From the UHGV virus genome UHGV-0388612: a DNA stretch of 17,813 bases. One strand, written 5' to 3'. The notes below the pieces were generated by a model. That model was not told the DNA's origin. It saw only the letters and a list, made by a program, of their open reading frames with translations, and made no database searches. The stretch comes from a virus. Positions within the stretch are counted from its first letter, which is position 1, and each line of letters begins with the position of its first letter. The position numbers and the translations under genes were made by a program. Positions 1,102 through 16,109 of the stretch are shown here, in pieces.

Positions 1102-1130
1102 ATAGTATCAAAAACCACTTGCCTTGTCAA
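1102..1130 (-). promoter_or_regulatory. sigma-A-like promoter: TTGACA, 17-nt spacer, extended -10 TGaTACTAT
   Basis: Minus-strand read: TTGACA (1130..1125), AGGCAAGTGGTTTTTGA, TACTAT (1107..1102). The predicted TSS is about 30 nt upstream of the ATG at 1065. The -35 overlaps the U-tract of the preceding terminator. Confidence 0.5.
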
Positions 1131-1160
1131 GAAGAAAAGCAGCCCTCTTCCGAGGGCTGC
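1131..1160 (-). terminator. Rho-independent terminator after endolysin gene
   Basis: Perfect 9-bp GC stem GCAGCCCTC / GAGGGCTGC with a 4-nt loop, followed on the minus strand by UUUUCUUCUUG. It begins 3 nt after the endolysin stop (1164-1166). Confidence 0.7.
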
Positions 1161-2308: not shown

Positions 2309-3334
2309 CTAAAATCCCAGATAGTCGAACACGTTGTTGAAGAACTCTCGCGTCTCGATAGTGTCGAAGAACACGCTTCCCTGCATGTACAGCTTGCGAA
2401 CGCTTCTCAACACGACACTAGACTTCTCTATCATAAGCAGGTTAGGCTGCATATCCGATTTTGTCAAGACGTAAACAAGAGCATCCTTCGGGTACCTGCT
2501 TGAAACGTAGTAGGCACCTTCCGTGTAGTCCACCCAAACACCGACCGTCCTGTTGTCGAACCGCAACGCGAAGTAGAATCTCGCTTCCTCCGATTTCTTG
2601 GCGATGAACTTGTCGTTGTCATCGTAGAACATGTTTCCCACTGCGTAATCGTAATAGGACGTTCCACGTATCATCTGACCGAATCTTGTCGTGTCCACGT
2701 GCGCCCTGAACCGATCGCTCTGCACAATCTCTACACACATGTACCCTTTGTGCGCCATGAGAAAGCGCTTTCCCTTCCTCGGCTTCAACCTCCATCCGAT
2801 GAAGTACGGATTGGTGAGCGCCACGGCGTTAGCCATGAACATAACCTTAACCCTGTCCTGAAATCGGTCAACCGTGTTGTAGAAGTCTTGGAACTGCTTC
2901 AACTCGTTTTGCAAGTAATGCAGCGAACCCTTGTCAATGATGAACTCGTCAAATCCTATCATATCAACGTCGGGATAGGGTACAGACTTTTTGGTCAGCG
3001 CGTTTGCCAACGTGATGAAGAAACATAGCACGCGCCATTTCTCTGGCTTTTCATCACCTATCGCAACCTTTCTGATGTACCCTTTCATTCCCTCAACTTT
3101 GAACTCCCACGATGGGAAGCGGTCAACAATATCCTGAAAGAACTCCTGCTTGTCATCGAACTCCGACTTGTATCTGCGCAAGTATATGAACTGCTTACCA
3201 GTCTTTATGAAATGCCTGATTCGTTTGTACTTGAAATCATACGTCTTGCCAGTGCCACGCCCGCCGATAACGAAATTGAACATAGCGTTGCGCGTCATAA
3301 TGTCGTGAGAATCGTAATACATGCTGTCGCTCAT
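2309..3334 (-). CDS. DNA packaging ATPase (phi29 gp16 family)
   Basis: Similarity along the length to phi29 gp16. Walker A is FNFVIGGRGTGKTY (phi29 NFVIGARGIGKSY). Walker B is MIGFDEF (phi29 TIVFDEF). Also FIYLRRYK, NPYF and GVWVD blocks match. The chosen start is the ATG at 3332-3334 (MSDSMYYD...), which overlaps the upstream stop as ATGA. The first in-frame ATG at 3355 has no SD. Confidence 0.9.
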   Translation of the reverse strand: MSDSMYYDSHDIMTRNAMFNFVIGGRGTGKTYDFKYKRIRHFIKTGKQFIYLRRYKSEFDDKQEFFQDIVDRFPSWEFKVEGMKGYIRKVAIGDEKPEKWRVLCFFITLANALTKKSVPYPDVDMIGFDEFIIDKGSLHYLQNELKQFQDFYNTVDRFQDRVKVMFMANAVALTNPYFIGWRLKPRKGKRFLMAHKGYMCVEIVQSDRFRAHVDTTRFGQMIRGTSYYDYAVGNMFYDDNDKFIAKKSEEARFYFALRFDNRTVGVWVDYTEGAYYVSSRYPKDALVYVLTKSDMQPNLLMIEKSSVVLRSVRKLYMQGSVFFDTIETREFFNNVFDYLGF

Positions 3335-4602
3335 AGGTACCGTCTCACCTCCCAATAATACATGTACCGTGGATAGTTCCTAGCATCGGTTGTGGTTTGG
3401 TCTGGTCCGTAATCGGGTCCACCATGTCCCCAAAGTTCATTGTTGCCCATGTACAGTTCAACGTGGTCAAATGAGCCGTTCCAACCATTCCACATAATCA
3501 GCACCAAATCGGCTGGCTCCATATCCTCGATGGGTAGGTTGTCACCAGAATAGCCGCTTGCTATCTTCGTCCCCTTGCCCGCCATAGCGCCCGTCCACGT
3601 GCCAACGTCGATTCCAGCAACCTGCTGGTACGCGAACCACACCGTAGAAGAACAGTCACCATATCCGCTGCTTATGGGGTCAAGCCGTCCAGCACCCTGC
3701 GAGTACGCGAACCTGTCAAGCCATGAGCGGTACAATTCGCATATGGCGTTCTGCGCTTCGCTTCCGCTCTCCGAACCGCCGCCCTCGTTGCCGCCGCCAA
3801 TGTCAGTTCCGTTCGCGTTGTACCCGTTAATCCAAACCTGTCCAGATGCGGGATAGAATATAACGCCTTTTTCGTACTCGTCTCTGCCATATAATATGAG
3901 TGTATCGCCATTTTGAATTATGTACCCCAACTTGCTTTCTTCTGTGCTAATCCCAGGGTTGTTGCCCCCCGGCGTTGTGTCAACGTCTCCGCTCTGACCG
4001 AAATCAGGCGGGTTGCTCTCACCGTCCCAATCCTTCAATCTCTGGTACACGGTGTTGTAGCGATTCCTGTACTGCCCAAGAACTCCGTGGTTCATGCAAA
4101 CGGTGTAAATCCTATCGAGGTCGGCGCTGCCGCCCGCCGTCGCTATCACCTGCCCCGCACTTGCTGGTGATTGATGGTACATGCTCATTGCGAAAATCAA
4201 CGGTTTAGGATAGGACTGACTCATGCCCCAATTTTCAAGCGTTGTGATGTACCCCTCGAAATCCACAATCGCCTGATTCTCTTGAATAACGTGGTTCTCT
4301 TTTTCTTGGAAAACAGTTATGATGCTGTTTCCCTCGTCCCTGTTAAGGTACCTGCTAGTCCACCATGTACTACCAGCATCATGGGATTCAATGTCCGAAC
4401 GCAACGAAGCAGCCAACTGCCCGTAGGCAGTTGGCATTTCGTTTTTGATGCGGTTGAGCAGCGCAGCAGCCCGTGTACCATACCACTGCATCATCCCTAT
4501 CGTGATAGGGTCGTTGTAGTTCACGGCAGTCCAATTCCAGTTGGATTCTACCTCGCCGATAACGTACATGGCATAATAGCATATGGTTCTGGTACTTGGC
4601 AT
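3331..4602 (-). CDS. tail-associated peptidoglycan hydrolase (phi29 gp13 position): N-terminal lysozyme-like domain, Gly-rich linker, C-terminal NlpC/P60-like cysteine peptidase
   Basis: N-terminus GEVESNWNW...GMMQWYG resembles the lysozyme-like (glutamate-dependent) tail lysin fold. A GGGNEGGGSESGSE linker follows. The C-terminus carries YGDCSSTVWFAY ... FDHVELYMG, a Cys...His arrangement typical of NlpC/P60. SD AAGGAGTGA sits 3 nt upstream of the ATG at 4600-4602. Confidence 0.7.
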   Translation of the reverse strand: MPSTRTICYYAMYVIGEVESNWNWTAVNYNDPITIGMMQWYGTRAAALLNRIKNEMPTAYGQLAASLRSDIESHDAGSTWWTSRYLNRDEGNSIITVFQEKENHVIQENQAIVDFEGYITTLENWGMSQSYPKPLIFAMSMYHQSPASAGQVIATAGGSADLDRIYTVCMNHGVLGQYRNRYNTVYQRLKDWDGESNPPDFGQSGDVDTTPGGNNPGISTEESKLGYIIQNGDTLILYGRDEYEKGVIFYPASGQVWINGYNANGTDIGGGNEGGGSESGSEAQNAICELYRSWLDRFAYSQGAGRLDPISSGYGDCSSTVWFAYQQVAGIDVGTWTGAMAGKGTKIASGYSGDNLPIEDMEPADLVLIMWNGWNGSFDHVELYMGNNELWGHGGPDYGPDQTTTDARNYPRYMYYWEVRRYL

Positions 4603-10357: not shown

Positions 10358-11803
10358 TTAGCCTGCGGACGTGTACGCCTTGTCAATGCCGATAATCAAA
10401 TCCTTGTGCTGGTACACCTGCGAACCCATCGCAACGGTCGGGTCAATGTAAGTGCTGGTCGCAGTAACGGTAACGTTCTCCGCAATCTCGTCCTCGGCAA
10501 CGTGAAGAACGCCCTCGGCATCCACGAACGTGCCCAGCTTCAACCGAACGCCGCCGCTCTCAACACCCGTGTTGTTCGCGGTGATTGCGAACGTGCAGCC
10601 CTGCGGAACCGTGTACCCCTCCGTCTCGGGCGTTACGGTGCCCTGAACCGTGGCGATAAGGCGCGTCTTTCCACCGCGCTCTGCGTAAGTGGGTTTCACT
10701 CCGTCAACCTCCGCATAGTCGAGCGTAACACCAGTTGCCTTAATGGCGGGAACAGTCACGCTGGTGCCAGCTTCCGTGGTGAACATGACTGCGTTCACGA
10801 AACGGGACACGGAATAGATGCCGTGGTGATGCAGCCAGTAGTTCCACGAAATCGCCTTGGGATTGCGGATGCTCTCGAAGTCGATAAGCGTGTCCGCACA
10901 CATGAAGAAATCGCGGTCGCACAGAATGGCTTGGCAACCGTCGATGCCGAAATCGTCAATCTCGATAACGCGCATCTTGAAGTCGGCTGCGGATGCGTTG
11001 AACGCGAACGCGATAACGTTAACGTCGAGCATAGCCACGAACTCGGGAGTTGCGAACAGAACAAGGTCGTTGTTGTTCGTGAACGTCGGCGCACCTGCGG
11101 CGTTGTACTGTCCAGAAAGAAAGCGCATCTTGCCCGCCATCGAGCGCACGGCTTCCGTAATCGCCATAGCATCGTCCTGCTTCTCCGAACGGGTTGCAGC
11201 AGCCGACGCATCGGGAACCTGCACCTTGTAGAAGCCGTCGATTCGCGCGTACTCTGCGAAAAGGTTGCGCATGATAAGGTACTCGTCCCAGTAGTCGGAC
11301 GTGTACGGCGTTTCCATGATGCGCCCCACGAGGTCTTGCAGCCCGTAGTCGGTCAAGAACGCACGACGCAGAAGCATGTCGTTGATGGTCAACTCGTAGT
11401 AGTCCTGACGGTTGATGCTGTGAAAGTTGCTCATAACGTCGGGCGCGTGGCAAGCGAACACGTCATCATAGCACTTGTTCGGATCGTAGCGCTTAGCCTG
11501 AATCAGCGTGGTGGCAAGTTCCTCGATAGTCTCGCCGTACTGCATCATGCCGCGCTTGAACTGCGCGAGCGGGTTAGTCCAAACCTTGCTCTTGATGACG
11601 ACGTCTCCGATGCGGTTCACAAGCGCGTCGATGAACTCGTTCATCATAGGGCGGTATTCGAGCAGGTTGTTCACCGTCTCGGTAATGTCACCCTGCGTCG
11701 CAGCAGGAATGCGCTGCTGGTACGCGAACGAAGCATCGGTGCGAATCGCGTTCAAAATCTGCGCGTTCGTCGCGTTCAGCGTCTTGATAGTCTTAGTTGC
11801 CAT
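10358..11803 (-). CDS. major capsid protein (phi29 gp8 family, HK97-like with C-terminal Ig-like domain)
   Basis: Blocks LVNRIGDVVI versus LVDRIGLVVI, and RNPKAISWNYWLHHHGIYSVSRFVNAVMF versus [29 protein letters not shown]. The start is the ATG at 11801-11803 (MATKTIKTLNATNAQILNAIR, compare phi29 ...SYDIVNAIR) with SD AAGGAGGA 8 nt upstream. The track start at 11893 is an upstream GTG/ATG extension without an SD. Confidence 0.9.
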   Translation of the reverse strand: MATKTIKTLNATNAQILNAIRTDASFAYQQRIPAATQGDITETVNNLLEYRPMMNEFIDALVNRIGDVVIKSKVWTNPLAQFKRGMMQYGETIEELATTLIQAKRYDPNKCYDDVFACHAPDVMSNFHSINRQDYYELTINDMLLRRAFLTDYGLQDLVGRIMETPYTSDYWDEYLIMRNLFAEYARIDGFYKVQVPDASAAATRSEKQDDAMAITEAVRSMAGKMRFLSGQYNAAGAPTFTNNNDLVLFATPEFVAMLDVNVIAFAFNASAADFKMRVIEIDDFGIDGCQAILCDRDFFMCADTLIDFESIRNPKAISWNYWLHHHGIYSVSRFVNAVMFTTEAGTSVTVPAIKATGVTLDYAEVDGVKPTYAERGGKTRLIATVQGTVTPETEGYTVPQGCTFAITANNTGVESGGVRLKLGTFVDAEGVLHVAEDEIAENVTVTATSTYIDPTVAMGSQVYQHKDLIIGIDKAYTSAG

Positions 11804-12134
11804 TGTTGCTGTCCTCCTTGTCATCGGTGAAAAGGTTGTCGATGTGGTACACGGTGCCGTCATCGTCCACGTCCTCAACGACAACACCGTCACCGTCGTT
11901 GTCGGCGGGAATCTGCATCAGCAGGTCATAGTTGCGAGCCTTCAAACTCTGAATGTCAGCCTTCATGGCTTCCTCGTTCGACGCATACTCGCTCATGCGG
12001 GCTTCCGCAGAACTTCGGTACTCGTCGGCATCCGCTCCCCGCTTAGCCATGTCCGTGAGGAACGTCTCTGCGGTCGCGTACTCGCCATCCTCCATCCTCT
12101 CACGGAGCCAAGCGAGCAAATCCTCTAGGTTCAT
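11793..12134 (-). CDS. scaffolding protein (phi29 gp7 position; 113 aa, acidic, helical)
   Basis: ATG at 12132-12134 (MNLEDLLAWLRERMEDGEY...) with SD GGAAGGAGAAG. It overlaps the MCP start by 11 nt. Composition and position match gp7. The longer track ORF (to 12215) runs into the structured non-coding region. Confidence 0.6.
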   Translation of the reverse strand: MNLEDLLAWLRERMEDGEYATAETFLTDMAKRGADADEYRSSAEARMSEYASNEEAMKADIQSLKARNYDLLMQIPADNDGDGVVVEDVDDDGTVYHIDNLFTDDKEDSNNGN

Positions 12135-12146
12135 GTTCTTCTCCTT

Positions 12147-12192
12147 CCAACAAAATAGCCCCCGCCATCTGGTTGTGACCGTGGCGAGGGCT
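12147..12192 (-). terminator. intrinsic-terminator-like hairpin immediately upstream of the scaffold gene RBS
   Basis: Minus strand: AGCCCUCGCCA (12192..12182), a 14-nt loop, UGGCGGGGGCU (12167..12157). This is an 11-bp stem with one G-U pair, followed by CUAUUUUGUUGG. Confidence 0.5.
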
Positions 12193-12317
12193 GACTGTGC
12201 TGGTGATATTGCCATTCCCGAAACGCCGCCGCTGCTAATGCGGCTCGCACTCGTGCGGGCGGTATCACCCGTAGCAACCCCGCATCGGTCATCGTCCAGA
12301 CGGATTGGGTATCACCA
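12147..12317 (-). ncRNA. candidate about 170-nt structured non-coding RNA (pRNA-like packaging RNA, or an attenuator leader)
   Basis: A promoter TTGACA-17-TATGTT lies immediately upstream and an intrinsic terminator lies at the 3' end. The sequence is GC-rich with multiple nested inverted repeats: GGUGAUA (12316..12310) pairs with UAUCACC (about 12209..12203); CGCC...GGCG encloses two hairpins, CGCA-CGAG-UGCG and GCCGC-AUUAGCA-GCGGC. No ORF is supported in this stretch. The length is close to the 174-nt phi29 pRNA. Confidence 0.3.
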
Positions 12318-12322
12318 TAGCC

Positions 12323-12351
12323 AACATAACCCACTTCGCAAGCACTGTCAA
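12323..12351 (-). promoter_or_regulatory. sigma-A-like promoter TTGACA(12351..12346)-17 nt-TATGTT(12328..12323)
   Basis: Read from the sequence. The -35 overlaps the RHH gene stop codon. It is oriented toward the structured region and the late genes. Confidence 0.45.
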
Positions 12352-12515
12352 GCACTCGCGTTCATTTTCACCAGATCAATCGAATCGGAGTAGGCGTTCA
12401 AAAACTGCGAGATTGCGACGCGCACCAGATACGATATGGGCAGGTTCTCCCTCTCGCCAATCTCCTTCAACTGCTCGTACATGGATTCGTCAATCCTGAA
12501 ACTGCGCTCAATCAT
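12348..12515 (-). CDS. ribbon-helix-helix (Arc/MetJ/CopG-like) DNA-binding protein, 55 aa
   Basis: Not in the ORF track because it is under 60 aa. The ATG at 12513-12515 has a perfect SD AGGAGGT 6 nt upstream and lies 12 nt after the DNAP stop. The sequence is MIERSFRIDESMYEQLKEIGERENLPISYLVRVAISQFLNAYSDSIDLVKMNASA. It has an N-terminal beta-strand with alternating residues (RSFRID), then two helices, the RHH signature. Confidence 0.6.
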   Translation of the reverse strand: MIERSFRIDESMYEQLKEIGERENLPISYLVRVAISQFLNAYSDSIDLVKMNASA

Positions 12516-12529
12516 TGCTGTACCTCCTA

Positions 12530-14242
12530 TCAGGTGAGCGTGAACGTTATGGGTTCGAGCACTATACCACCCCTAACGTGCCTTGGCTTCAACTTCCCGT
12601 GAAGCTGCAAGCCCCTCTTGAAACTGTCGAACGTCACCATGCGCTTCAACTCCTCTGGCATACCGGCGCACTTAACGTCATCGAACGGCTGAACGTCAAC
12701 CATCCTGTATTCGCCATCAACCATCTTGCCAACCTGATATATTCTCTCCATGTACGTCTTAGCCCTGATATATTTAGCCATGCTGAAATTGCTCTCATGC
12801 TTCCACGCGCCCAAACGTGTAGGATGCACCTCCAAACCCTCGGGAATGTCTGTGCCGCAAATGTGTATGCTGTCCGTGTCACAGTACATGAACCTATCGT
12901 ATACGCTTTGCGCTGCATTGATGGTCTTGTACCTAGCCCATGCGGTAATAAAGCAACCCATAGGCGTGTACACGGGGTCGCGCGTCTCTTTCTCTCCCAA
13001 TCTGTACCCAACTGAACCGTCCTCTTTCAAGTAAGGCAGTTTCGGCGTAACGTCGGGGTTCGTGGCGAACTTGCCATAAAGTGAGTTCAACATGAGCTTC
13101 GCAAGCTGTCGCAAACCGCCCGTGGTAGTTTCTTTAATGTGCATCCAATAGTCTATGTAATCTTTGAACAGCCCAGTGGCTTGCTCGAACATGTACCCGC
13201 CGTTGTACGAAAACACCGTCACGTCGTACTGCTGCATGAGTATTTCCAAGTCTATGTTGGTCAAAGCCAACTCAACTGTTCCCTCCGTGTCATGGATGTA
13301 CTCCGTTTCGGAGAAAAACGGGTTGTTCTTAATCTGCAACGTGGGGAGGTGGTCGGGCTTCAACTTGCAATGGCAGGTGAGGAATTGAATGTACAGGGGA
13401 TATTGGGGGTTGTCCTTGTACTCTCCGTGGAAATATATCGGCTGCCCGATTGGCAACGGTCTGTTGTACATAACGTCGGGGTACAGCGAGTTAACGTCAA
13501 ACGCAGCCCCGTAGCCCTGCAACCTGTCCTCGTGTTCCTCGTCAGCCTGAAACCTAGGGTTCGCGTATGTGTAGCCGCCGCGATACGCCTTGCGTATCAT
13601 CGCGTCCATTTCCAGATGAATCTTAGGGAACCAGTCATCCCACTTCGAGCCTATTATGTCCTTGTACCCGTTGAGCGCGTCGCTTCCGATGGTAAGCCTG
13701 TCAAGCCCCTTGCCGAACTGCTGATGCAGCGCCCTAGCGACGATCTGAACGTCGTTCCTGATGTAGTCTCGTTCCTGCGCTGTCAACTCGTGACCTATGG
13801 GGCGGTACTCCGTATAGTCAATCTCCAACTTGGATATGGGGAGGTCGAAAGCCTTTGCAATCTGCGATACCTTCATGGGGAGTTTCTTCAAGCTGTCTTT
13901 GAATGTGCAGGTTAGCGCTTTCTTCTTGCCCTTCTTCTCAAAGCAAACCTTCATCTGATAGAACTTGCCCATGTTTGATATGAGCGTTTTGAAAGTCTTT
14001 GTCCTCGCCTTTTCGCTGTACTCAAATCCGTTGGTCAGCAGGTACCATATAATGAACTCACAATCGAATGCAGCATTGTGGAAATAATATGTACCGCCGT
14101 GAACCTTGCAGAAATCAAGAAACGTGGCAATGTCCGTTCCATAGCTTAGTGCGTCGGGGTTGTCAATCTCGCACACGCACCACGCCCAAACGCGACAATC
14201 ATTTATATCTATGGTTGTCTCGAAGTCTGCGGCGTACTCCAT
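12530..14242 (-). CDS. protein-primed family B DNA polymerase (phi29 gp2 family)
   Basis: High similarity over the full length to phi29 DNAP. Motifs present: Exo I DFETT; Exo II YFHNAAFDCEFI; Exo III YIRNDVQI; motif A DVNSLYP; motif B KLMLNSLYGKF; motif C YCDTDS; plus YNGGYMFEQATGLFKDYIDYW and PVYTPMGCFITAWARY blocks. Confidence 0.95.
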   Translation of the reverse strand: MEYAADFETTIDINDCRVWAWCVCEIDNPDALSYGTDIATFLDFCKVHGGTYYFHNAAFDCEFIIWYLLTNGFEYSEKARTKTFKTLISNMGKFYQMKVCFEKKGKKKALTCTFKDSLKKLPMKVSQIAKAFDLPISKLEIDYTEYRPIGHELTAQERDYIRNDVQIVARALHQQFGKGLDRLTIGSDALNGYKDIIGSKWDDWFPKIHLEMDAMIRKAYRGGYTYANPRFQADEEHEDRLQGYGAAFDVNSLYPDVMYNRPLPIGQPIYFHGEYKDNPQYPLYIQFLTCHCKLKPDHLPTLQIKNNPFFSETEYIHDTEGTVELALTNIDLEILMQQYDVTVFSYNGGYMFEQATGLFKDYIDYWMHIKETTTGGLRQLAKLMLNSLYGKFATNPDVTPKLPYLKEDGSVGYRLGEKETRDPVYTPMGCFITAWARYKTINAAQSVYDRFMYCDTDSIHICGTDIPEGLEVHPTRLGAWKHESNFSMAKYIRAKTYMERIYQVGKMVDGEYRMVDVQPFDDVKCAGMPEELKRMVTFDSFKRGLQLHGKLKPRHVRGGIVLEPITFTLT

Positions 14243-14244
14243 AG

Positions 14245-15060
14245 CTACCTACGTTTTTTGCTTTTACGCTTGCGTTTTCCGGTCTGCTTCTTGGGGTACT
14301 GGTTCTGAACCTGTTGAATGGTCAGTATCATATGCTCTTTCTGCGCTTCATCGTCCATAGCGTCAGCCTGCGCGCCCATAACGTTATCGCGGTCGGTGTT
14401 TATGTACCTGTAATAAAGGGGGACGAAGTTTGTGAAGTTCTGCAACGCAAACAGTTGTTCGTTGCTCAACTTCCTAATCATGTTGGGTATTCGCGGGTCG
14501 TTGAACGTCGCGGCGTGTTCCAAAAGGTTCTTGCGAAGCTGCGTTATCCGCTTGCGCTGGTACGTCGGGGATAGTTCGCGCTTCAAAATCTGCGATCGCT
14601 TCCGCAAATCCGCTTCGCTGCGTATCTGCTCGGGGAGTAGTTGGCGCTGATAGTCTATGTTGCCGAACGGCAAGCCCTTAACATGAGCCATAGCCGAACG
14701 CATCCCCAATGTTGTATCGCTCTCGCCGTAGGCGGTTAGGAACGGATGCGCGGCGAACTTCTGCCAATATCTGTTATGTTCCCTGTTCCATTGCCTTTCA
14801 AGCCGTTTGTAATCCCTATAAGCCGTGTACGGTATCGGGGTACCGTCGCGCCCCGCGACAAAACGTGTCGAACGTGATATGAACTTTTCCAACTGGTTGG
14901 CGTATGAGTTTAGCACCCTCGTGTTCGACGGGTCAACCGTCCTGAACGGCTCTACGCTGCCCGTCCTTATGCCCTTGTTCTGCAATCTCTTGATTTTGCG
15001 CCGCGCCCTCCGTTCTGCATCCGCAACACGGGCGCGGGCGTTCTCGTTAGCCTTGGTCAT
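14245..15060 (-). CDS. terminal protein (phi29 gp3 position), strongly basic C-terminal tail
   Basis: Immediately upstream of and translationally coupled to the DNAP (stop TAG, then CT, then ATG). SD AAGGAGGTGA is 4 nt upstream of the ATG at 15058-15060. The length is 271 aa (phi29 TP is 266 aa). It is rich in R/K/Q and helical in character. It ends in KKQTGKRKRKSKKRR. Confidence 0.6.
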   Translation of the reverse strand: MTKANENARARVADAERRARRKIKRLQNKGIRTGSVEPFRTVDPSNTRVLNSYANQLEKFISRSTRFVAGRDGTPIPYTAYRDYKRLERQWNREHNRYWQKFAAHPFLTAYGESDTTLGMRSAMAHVKGLPFGNIDYQRQLLPEQIRSEADLRKRSQILKRELSPTYQRKRITQLRKNLLEHAATFNDPRIPNMIRKLSNEQLFALQNFTNFVPLYYRYINTDRDNVMGAQADAMDDEAQKEHMILTIQQVQNQYPKKQTGKRKRKSKKRR

Positions 15061-15073
15061 CGGCTCACCTCCT

Positions 15074-15104
15074 TAACAGAAAGGGCGGGCATTTCGCCCG
15101 CCCT
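15074..15104 (-). terminator. intra-operon hairpin terminator/attenuator between SSB and terminal-protein genes
   Basis: Perfect 9-bp stem AGGGCGGGC / GCCCGCCCT (15082-15104) with a 5-nt loop, followed on the minus strand by UUUCUGUU and then the TP SD. Confidence 0.5.
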
Positions 15105-15129: not shown

Positions 15130-15546
15130 TTACTTGTGGCGCTGCAAGCTGGTGAACTTGTACCCGTTGCGCCCCTGCTTCTTCACAACTTCGAACTTGA
15201 TTGCGGGATTCCACGGCGGGCAACCTACGATGCTGAAAAGGTTCTTCATCGAGGTTTCAACGCCCGTGCTGGTGCATCCGTAGGCATCGCCCTTCGGGGT
15301 GATAAGCACGATGCGATTGCGCTGCATAATCTCACCCGTCGCATTGTCGGTCATTTCCACGGGCTGAATAATGACGTTCTCAACCTCAACGACCTTCCCC
15401 ACCATGTCATCGAGGGAGAGGGAGTTAGAAACAGCCTCGTAAATGTCCAGCCTGTCCTCTTGCGTCTCCGCATGAATCGAGCAATACATGCCCTTAACCA
15501 TATCGGGCGCGTCGTTCGTGATGGTCGCAAGTTCGGTGTTCTCCAT
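15130..15546 (-). CDS. single-stranded DNA-binding protein (phi29 p5-like)
   Basis: The N-terminus MENT... is identical to phi29 p5, and the C-terminus ...YKFTSLQRHK resembles p5 ...VFFSLQLSL. Size is 138 aa versus 124 aa. It sits between the p6-like and TP genes. SD AAAGGA is 7 nt upstream. Confidence 0.65.
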   Translation of the reverse strand: MENTELATITNDAPDMVKGMYCSIHAETQEDRLDIYEAVSNSLSLDDMVGKVVEVENVIIQPVEMTDNATGEIMQRNRIVLITPKGDAYGCTSTGVETSMKNLFSIVGCPPWNPAIKFEVVKKQGRNGYKFTSLQRHK

Positions 15547-15597: not shown

Positions 15598-15858
15598 TTA
15601 GTCCTCGTCCGCTTCTGTCGCGTCGCAAGGGGTGCCGTACTTCTTGAAGTCCTCAAACGTCATCTTGTACAGCTGCTCATGCTCCACAACGTCAACGGCT
15701 GCAAAACTAGGCTCCTGCTTGCGAATGAGCGCTTGAGCGGTGTTCAGGCCGCACTTCTTGTCAAGCTGATAGGCAACCTGCACGGGCTGACCGTCCTTGA
15801 TAACGTACCCGCGCACCTCCGTGCTTGTGAACTTCTTCTGAATCGTGTTGCGTGCCAT
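15598..15858 (-). CDS. small early protein, candidate dsDNA-binding/nucleoid protein (phi29 p6-like), acidic C-terminus
   Basis: First gene after a near-consensus promoter. It is 86 aa with an acidic tail (CDATEADED), like p6. SD GGAAAGGA is 7 nt upstream. It lies upstream of the SSB as in the phi29 gene 6-5 order. Confidence 0.5.
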   Translation of the reverse strand: MARNTIQKKFTSTEVRGYVIKDGQPVQVAYQLDKKCGLNTAQALIRKQEPSFAAVDVVEHEQLYKMTFEDFKKYGTPCDATEADED

Positions 15859-15898: not shown

Positions 15899-15927
15899 AT
15901 ATTACGCCTTTCGGTGCGGCTTGTCAA
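15899..15927 (-). promoter_or_regulatory. early promoter TTGACA(15927..15922)-17 nt-TAATAT(15904..15899)
   Basis: Read from the sequence. The predicted TSS is about 34 nt upstream of the p6-like ATG. A second TTGCAA hexamer lies 20 nt further upstream. Confidence 0.55.
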
Positions 15928-16109
15928 GTATTAAAACCCACTTGCAAGCCGATCCACAAAACCTACATAATTGGGGAGCTAGTCCGCATCATCAATCTTG
16001 ATGACCGCATACCATACCTCCGTGATAGTCGATAATCTTACGAACGTTCTTTTCCAATTTAGTCTCCATTGTACTACCCCTTTCTAACAGATGGGCATGT
16101 TGCCTAAAT

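Follow-up and report, generated by a model that had tools for sequence, protein, structure and literature searches.

A ribbon-helix-helix gene and a conserved, pRNA-shaped RNA at the early/late junction of a phi29-like phage genome

At the 3' end of the replication operon of a phi29-like phage genome, we find a gene for a small ribbon-helix-helix (RHH) protein and, next to it, a conserved structured RNA that resembles the packaging RNA (pRNA) of phi29 in its architecture. The genome is UHGV virus genome UHGV-0388612, of which the whole analyzed stretch of 17,813 nucleotides (nt) is called the window in the following; it represents a compact phi29-like gut podophage with almost every gene on the minus strand. 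The RHH gene (12348..12515, −) encodes 55 amino acids (aa) and closes the early operon as its last cistron. By family and predicted fold, its product is an RHH DNA-binding protein, probably a transcription factor, and we tentatively propose that it represses the early promoters. As a protein it is ordinary and adds a further member to a very common class. More notable is the neighboring family of pRNA-shaped RNAs, a type of RNA that the literature does not place outside Bacillus phages (PMC11476376).

The gene is recognizable from its open reading frame (ORF), from profile searches, from a structural model and from synteny. The ORF, which translates as MIERSFRIDESMYEQLKEIGERENLPISYLVRVAISQFLNAYSDSIDLVKMNASA, runs on the minus strand from an ATG at 12515..12513 to a TGA stop codon at 12350..12348. 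A perfect Shine-Dalgarno (SD) sequence, AGGAGGT, which a preliminary description of this stretch had already pointed out, is indeed present at 12528..12522 (−), where 6 nt separate it from the downstream ATG, and begins 2 nt past the stop codon of the polymerase gene (12532..12530). The RHH signature described there is likewise borne out: the protein scores above the curated Pfam cut-offs for both RHH_1 (PF01402; 27.6 bits against 20.5, E 2.6e-6) and RHH_3 (PF12651; 23.4 bits against 21.6), and its best PHROG match is phrog_3180, ‘Arc-like repressor’ (E 7.9e-11). In an AlphaFold2 model (alignment-based, single chain; mean predicted local distance difference test score 84), residues 1-9 are extended and followed by helices at residues 10-23 and 27-53; as expected for a monomer model, the extended residues are not scored as a strand. 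The comparison with families of the Arc/MetJ/CopG type that had been suggested as a check gives the same picture. In a Foldseek search against the PDB, the top 12 matches are all RHH proteins, among them ORF56 of pRN1, CopG, CopA(SO), CdbA, AmrZ, PutA and Arc, with E-values that are weak, as is expected at 55 residues (best match 2k9i, probability 0.97, E 0.028). ORF56 (2k9i) is also the best PDB match by sequence profile (E 0.037).

Homologs of this protein form 60 clusters of 47-72 aa, nearly all of them 49-65 aa, which keep the frame and a similar length and have a strong SD sequence across clades as well. In every contig or locus examined, the gene occupies the same position: the DNA polymerase gene precedes it, and a gap of ~200 nt separates it from a scaffold-like gene, which the capsid gene follows. 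The homologs show hardly any variation in the N-terminal strand, M-I/V-E-R-S-x-R, and for the first 42 codons the ratio of nonsynonymous to synonymous substitution rates (dN/dS) is 0.03-0.30, while synonymous sites are nearly saturated. By these sequence comparisons, the ORF is a real gene under purifying selection. It had been described as unannotated, which holds for the window itself; by contrast, a homolog (P0045) is listed at NCBI as ‘Transcriptional regulator, RHH-like, CopG [Bacteriophage sp.]’. A tblastn search of the protein against 50,697 phage records returned only chance-level matches to Sulfolobus viruses, and a literature search found no paper on the protein or on the adjacent RNA.

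What the protein may do is suggested by a recurrent motif. The candidate operator, (GC)AAGTGG-N6-ATACT, is an imperfect palindrome with half-site centers 11 bp apart. In the window, a motif search places it at two sites: as AGTGG-GTTTTA-ATACT (15927..15942, −) it abuts the -35 element of the early promoter P_E2 (15927..15899, −; found by promoter scan), which drives the operon that ends with the RHH gene, and as AGTGG-TTTTTG-ATACT (1104..1119, −) it lies inside the spacer and -10 element of a second promoter-like site, P_E1 (1130..1102). These two exact copies of AGTGG-N6-ATACT, both on the transcribed strand, compare with 0.02 expected, and none of 200 shuffles contained them. In 28 RHH-positive loci from several clades, the motif is found in one or two copies per genome, all of them within the early region and on the transcribed strand. 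RHH-negative loci yielded one exact match, presumably by chance, and two relatives that have the RNA and no RHH gene (L081 and L082) also do not have the motif. Between clades, the left half-site (AGTGG) does not vary, and neither do residues E3, R4, S5 and R7 of the N-terminal strand.

Most RHH proteins, such as CopG, Arc, omega and various antitoxins, bind as a dimer of dimers to a short repeated operator and repress transcription, and the half-sites of the Arc operator are spaced by ~11 bp. In the mechanism that we propose for the window, the early operon would yield the RHH protein from its last cistron, and the protein would act as a dimer of dimers, i.e. a tetramer, on AGTGG-N6-ATACT. 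As it accumulates, it would throttle both P_E2 and the second early promoter, which would amount to autoregulation and early shut-off, while the late genes would be reached by read-through of the terminator of the neighboring RNA; the promoter of that RNA, P_RNA, would not be an obvious target. The oligomeric state, the binding to the motif and the sign of the regulation are what we infer here, and we consider this role as a feedback repressor of early promoters possible, at a little less than an even chance.

Several observations weigh against it. The motif pattern was derived from the same clade, the statistic for the window is post hoc, and the co-occurrence of motif and gene is confounded by phylogeny. 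The motif is not linked directly to the RHH protein, so that the p6-like protein of the operon, an unknown ORF or a host factor could bind it instead, or it could be a promoter element of the UP type, given its A/T-rich center. Furthermore, some divergent RHH-positive clades (L083-L085, L056 and L058) have a degenerate motif or none, and the site at P_E2 is centered near -44, from where it could equally serve activation.

The preliminary description had suggested a different role for the protein, that of a candidate functional analog of the phi29 regulator p4 at the adjacent promoter. That promoter is real, and it overlaps the end of the RHH gene, which does mark the 3' end of the replication operon at the early/late junction, as had been stated. 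P_RNA (12323..12351, −; found by promoter scan) is of the sigma-70 type, with a -35 element TTGACA (12351..12346), a 17-nt spacer and a -10 element TATGTT (12328..12323), and matches the consensus at 10 of 12 positions; the RHH stop codon TGA does fall inside its TTGACA. In 17 of 17 diverse relatives, -35 and -10 hexamers can be read by eye 5-9 nt before an RNA that starts with GGUG, with spacers that vary, and in most clades the -35 is the consensus TTGACA. Because of this consensus -35, P_RNA, unlike the phi29 late promoter A3, needs no activator, which argues against a p4-like activation of a late promoter that lacks a -35. It also does not look like a late promoter, since its first product appears to be a structured RNA with its own terminator; its positional counterpart in phi29 is the pRNA promoter A1, which lies at 328-356, ahead of the pRNA start at 320, and not A3. 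Finally, hhalign gives a probability of 0.7% for the RHH protein against phi29 p4, whereas phi29 p4 as a control scores 215 bits on PF05464. What stands of the earlier idea is a plausible transcription regulator; a p4-like activator of an adjacent late promoter is unsupported. The only operator-like motif that recurs lies at the early promoters and fits an early-promoter repressor, which overlaps with p4 only on its repressor side.

A related explanation, that the RHH protein controls P_RNA, activating it in the manner of p4 or repressing it, and thereby times the RNA and, by read-through, the late genes, appears unlikely to us. In its favor, the end of the RHH gene and the -35 of P_RNA physically overlap in most clades, nearly all close relatives have the gene and the RNA unit together, and in the window's subclade three direct AGTG(C/G) repeats, 10 and 11 bp apart, span the -35 and spacer of P_RNA, with a fourth in L021. 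However, these repeats are limited to that one subclade, and the spacer and discriminator of P_RNA are wholly different between clades; because the DNA-reading strand of the RHH protein is almost invariant all the while, no conserved operator is visible there. Moreover, P_RNA has a consensus -35 and a good -10, the promoter and the RNA exist without the RHH gene in L081 and L082, in distant clades the RNA directly follows the polymerase gene, and the protein has no similarity to p4. A search for k-mers common to P_RNA and the rest of each genome returned noise only. Judged by its sequence, P_RNA is a near-consensus constitutive promoter and a poor candidate target, although, given the AGTG repeats, the protein may have a local role there in the window's subclade. 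As a separate observation, L021 (3150-3210) has four repeats instead of three because 10 bp (AGTGCTTGAC) are duplicated in tandem in the region of its RHH stop codon and -35.

The immediate product of P_RNA appears to be the conserved structured RNA rather than a late mRNA. The 213-nt gap between the RHH gene and the first late gene (12135-12347) is far better conserved than the coding DNA that flanks it: over the first 65 nt, L002 does not differ from the window, despite an RHH protein of only 58% identity, and between the window and L018 just 1 of 115 core bases differs, though the synonymous sites of the RHH gene are saturated. The predicted RNA unit of ~167 nt (12316-12149, −) consists of a 115-nt core (12202..12316, −), identified by a covariance model and by covariation, a loose linker and a terminator hairpin. 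In the core, the 5' and 3' ends form the helices P1 and P1b, and P1a is a small hairpin; P2 contains a 7-nt 5' bulge, GUUGCUA, and a small hairpin, P2a (CGG-GUGAUA-CCG); the loop of the hairpin P3, UAGCA, has a sequence complementary to the P2 bulge. The 17 diverse relatives share this plan, with cores of 113-118 nt, an unconserved linker of 9-12 nt and a GC-rich hairpin with a U-run, which ends ~12-20 nt before the SD sequence and start codon of the first late gene.

To examine the fold, we aligned 14 distinct cores with MAFFT (alignment A4). There, 90% of the cells form standard pairs, compared with 35-48% when the pairing partners are slid by 1-3 columns, and 14 pairs are changed on both sides, compared with 6.6±1.6 in shuffled alignments, of which none of 500 reached 14. 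The bulge UUGCUA pairs with the loop UAGCAG, and compensated variants of this interaction (UGCCA:UGGCA, ACGC:GCGU and UUGCC:GGCAA) occur; the complementarity score of each bulge with its own loop is 4.58, compared with 3.04±0.19 for shuffled loops. A covariance model of the core, R1, has a single match in the window (136 bits) and detects the RNA right after the polymerase or RHH gene in all relatives down to ~58% polymerase identity. Rfam contains no match, neither for the whole window at E<=1 nor for 12100-12400 at E<=10; only chance-level hits to D12-methyl, mir-35 and Atu_C7 appeared. A scan of 185,579 species genomes with the RNA core gave no match either, and hence no clue to a prophage or host, and a 17-mer search of IMG/VR with the core gave seven matches outside the clade that are unrelated, apparently coding and attributable to chance.

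The 3' domain (12149..12192, −), read from the sequence, resembles an intrinsic terminator, with a GC-rich hairpin (AGCCCTCGCCA...TGGCGGGGGCT) followed by ATTTTGTT. It is missing from our terminator scan because its loop exceeds the 3-8 nt limit of the scanner. The hairpin is kept with compensatory changes in all relatives; both the RNA and the early operon would end with this domain, 14 nt short of the start codon of the first late gene. Since this leaves no room for another promoter, the late genes in the window's clade are presumably transcribed through the terminator of the RNA. A riboswitch-like antiterminator was considered and set aside, because the linker is unconserved and because core and terminator hairpin fold independently of each other in 11 of 17 minimum free energy (MFE) folds; an alternative pairing in the MFE fold of the window is not conserved. 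Likewise, we had considered three copies of GGTGATACC within the gap, two direct and one inverted, as RHH operators. The outer two turned out to be the covarying strands of helix P1 (GGUGGUU/AACCACC and others), and the inner one is a hairpin loop.

In both size and layout, this RNA recalls the phi29 pRNA, whose domain I of 117 nt is followed by an unstructured linker of 13 nt and a 3' domain II of 44 nt (PMC5066667); the corresponding parts in the window's type of RNA measure 115 nt, 9-12 nt and ~44 nt. According to the structure line of the Rfam entry (RF00044), the ends of the phi29 RNA form the A helix, followed by the C helix, a 9-nt 5' bulge, a 4-bp E hairpin with a hexaloop, a direct return and the D hairpin, whose loop pairs with the 5' bulge. 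Covariation supports the same helix order in the window's type of RNA: a helix that closes the ends, a helix interrupted on its 5' side by a bulge (7-9 nt across the two RNAs), a small hexaloop hairpin with direct return and, last, a second hairpin whose loop is complementary to the bulge. By contrast, the additional small hairpin P1a makes for a four-way rather than a three-way junction, the D-like hairpin is longer, and the RNA abuts late genes on the same strand, unlike phi29 pRNA. The promoter of the phi29 pRNA, A1, lies downstream of the polymerase gene, where the early operon ends (PMC6266182), with a few small ORFs in between; the RNA gene in the window has the same position, with its own promoter. 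Because the covariance models fail to cross-detect, RF00044 on the RNA of the window and R1 on phi29 (control: phi29 pRNA, 145 bits on RF00044), this resemblance is one of architecture and position, with no demonstrable sequence homology.

RNAs of this shape recur in more distant relatives. In L081 (4292-4435) and L082 (4115-4258), with polymerases 66% identical to that of the window, the RNA directly follows the polymerase gene. Distant phi29-like metagenomic phages, whose polymerases are 46-52% identical, have promoter-like hexamers, as judged by eye, and a pRNA-shaped RNA of 96-110 nt after the polymerase gene, and in many of these clades the gene for the gp16 packaging ATPase lies directly downstream. 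Such RNAs are found in L088 (11269-11371), L093 (11678-11787), L101 (11665-11769), L102 (11670-11777), L105 (5373-5469), L122 (4483-4578), L125 (4789-4885), L126 (4500-4595) and L134 (4685-4782). The closest isolate, Eggerthella phage LE1-1 (Guelinviridae; L001, MW679025), which can be cultured on Eggerthella lenta DSM 2243, covers just 2% of the window at the DNA level and has neither an RHH gene nor a gap after its polymerase gene, has a plain three-way, pRNA-like RNA at 12540-12636 (MFE z-score -3.8). It is unannotated and lies in an annotation gap (12524-12732) between the lysozyme gene and LE11_18 with the encapsidation ATPase gene, one gene away from the latter. Its bulge, GGGGC, is complementary to its loop, GCCCC, and its small hairpin, CCCG-GUGAAA-CGGG, shares the GUGAAA hexaloop.

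These three-way RNAs are very divergent, and MAFFT with RNAalifold recovered only two small hairpins from them; we therefore examined the topology of single-sequence folds instead. Nine of the ten RNAs of distant relatives and LE1-1 fold without constraint into the plain three-way topology, as does the phi29 pRNA as a control, and the folds show a complementarity of 2-6 nt between bulge and loop. Only 2 of 2000 shuffled sequences adopt this topology, neither of them with at least 4 complementary bases. The slot after the polymerase gene also contains small unrelated ORFs in other loci (L132 4807-4974, L127 4498-4665, L112 4340-4567, L118 4690-4935, L121 3793-4041 and L100 4203-4580). Several post-polymerase ORFs of other clades look like RHH or helix-turn-helix proteins by eye, but their Pfam matches are sub-threshold only, and we do not claim them as such.

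The gene on the 3' side of the RNA varies between a scaffold gene, an ATPase gene and LE11_18, which argues against a cis-acting leader of one particular operon. Together with the adjacency to the ATPase gene, this tips the balance slightly towards a trans-acting packaging RNA. On the broader picture we are evenly divided: P_RNA may make the pRNA of this lineage, with pRNA-type RNAs widespread in uncultured gut phi29-like podophages, always located behind the polymerase gene and frequently just upstream of the gp16 ATPase gene; the terminator would then, in the window's clade, double as a gate for all late transcription, and the RHH protein would be an accessory early regulator encoded on this module. 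A 2024 review states that, as far as is currently known, only phi29 and related Bacillus phages have a pRNA (PMC11476376). If the RNAs described here are packaging RNAs, the origin and the necessity of pRNA in gp16-type motors would become testable in new systems, many natural variants of a self-assembling RNA used in RNA nanotechnology would become available, and the window would exemplify a genome organized so that the expression of its late genes depends on read-through of the pRNA terminator.

The RHH protein itself could also have a non-transcriptional role, as an accessory DNA or RNA binder in replication or packaging, for instance with the neighboring RNA, as an antitoxin-like protein or in anti-defense. 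We regard this as rather improbable. The gene does sit in the variable slot between polymerase and RNA, which in phi29 holds small accessory proteins such as the uracil-DNA glycosylase inhibitor p56, it is tightly linked to the RNA gene, and one of its homologs is labeled a RelBE/DinJ antitoxin component by JGI. However, its Pfam and PHROG matches are to repressor classes, no toxin-like partner ORF accompanies it, its neighbors in every locus being the polymerase gene and the non-coding RNA, and to our knowledge RNA binding is not established for RHH proteins. The weakest alternative, a chance open frame whose conservation reflects the overlapping promoter or the 3' end of the polymerase gene, can appeal to the shortness of the ORF and to its 3' overlap with P_RNA, but is effectively refuted by the low dN/dS at saturated synonymous sites, the above-threshold Pfam score, the strong SD sequence in all clades and the 60 clusters of similar length.

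The remainder of the early operon is organized as in phi29. Its first cistron (15598..15858, −) encodes a p6-like double-stranded DNA-binding protein of 86 aa (MARNTIQKKF...; phrog_6370 ‘dsDNA binding protein’, E 3.4e-4), which is kept in relatives with a conserved MARN... N-terminus. It is followed by genes for a phi29-type single-stranded DNA-binding protein (SSB; 15130-15546, −) and the terminal protein (TP; 14245-15060, −), both identified with Pfam and PHROG, and for the protein-primed family B DNA polymerase (PolB; 12530..14242, −; PF03175, 257 bits), the cistron directly upstream of the RHH gene. The order P_E2 - p6-like - SSB - TP - PolB - RHH equals that of the phi29 early operon, A2c - 6 - 5 - 4 - 3 - 2, minus gene 4. 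As the preliminary description had it, the SSB and TP genes are adjacent, and none of the tested ORFs of the window, early ORFs included, matches the Pfam family Phi-29_GP4 (PF05464). The 69-nt gap between the two genes contains a terminator-like hairpin, GGGCGAAATGCCCGCCC, followed by TTTCTGTT (15083-15099, −), which recalls the internal terminator in gene 4 of phi29; the latter favors the expression of p5 and p6 (PMC11476376). In one relative, L056, the polymerase gene is called as two ORFs of 389 and 183 aa (2842-4559), probably because of a frameshift or an assembly error.

The first late gene (11793..12134, −; an ORF supported by gene calls in relatives) encodes 113 aa and is preceded by the SD sequence GGAAGGAG (12148..12141, −). 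It has no family match in profile searches and is scaffold-like by position only, with the major capsid gene next to it. Further downstream, capsid, tail, connector and gp16 ATPase genes were identified via gene calls in relatives. The terminator of the late operon (1160..1139) is immediately followed by the early promoter at 1130..1102, near which related contigs begin, and the ends of the window have no inverted terminal repeats. Given this junction and the missing repeats, the window seems to represent a linear genome of the protein-primed type that was assembled in circularly permuted form.

Among known systems, the RHH protein adds a predicted regulator with candidate operator sites to the poorly studied small gut phages related to LE1-1. 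CopG is the first cistron of its operon. Together with ORF56 of the Sulfolobus plasmid pRN1, CopG of pMV158 provides the best PDB matches by fold (2k9i, 1b01 and 1ea4), and both are minimal RHH repressors of their own operon, with ~45-55 aa in a strand-helix-helix arrangement like that of the protein in the window. The latter is likewise encoded in the operon that it is proposed to repress, through an operator that is only predicted here; its setting differs, as it is the last cistron in the replication operon of a lytic phage and not part of a plasmid copy control system. Arc and Mnt of P22 are phage-encoded RHH proteins as well, and the half-sites of the candidate operator, ~11 bp apart, are in keeping with Arc; on the other hand, there is no immI-like antirepressor context in the window, and the identity in Foldseek alignments with Arc is negligible (7-15%). 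Lastly, p4 of phi29 and the RHH protein are both small DNA-binding proteins from the early operon of a phi29-like phage, and if the operator prediction is right, they share the repression of early promoters. They are nevertheless unrelated in fold and sequence, and the RHH gene follows the counterpart of gene 2 instead of standing between those of genes 5 and 3.

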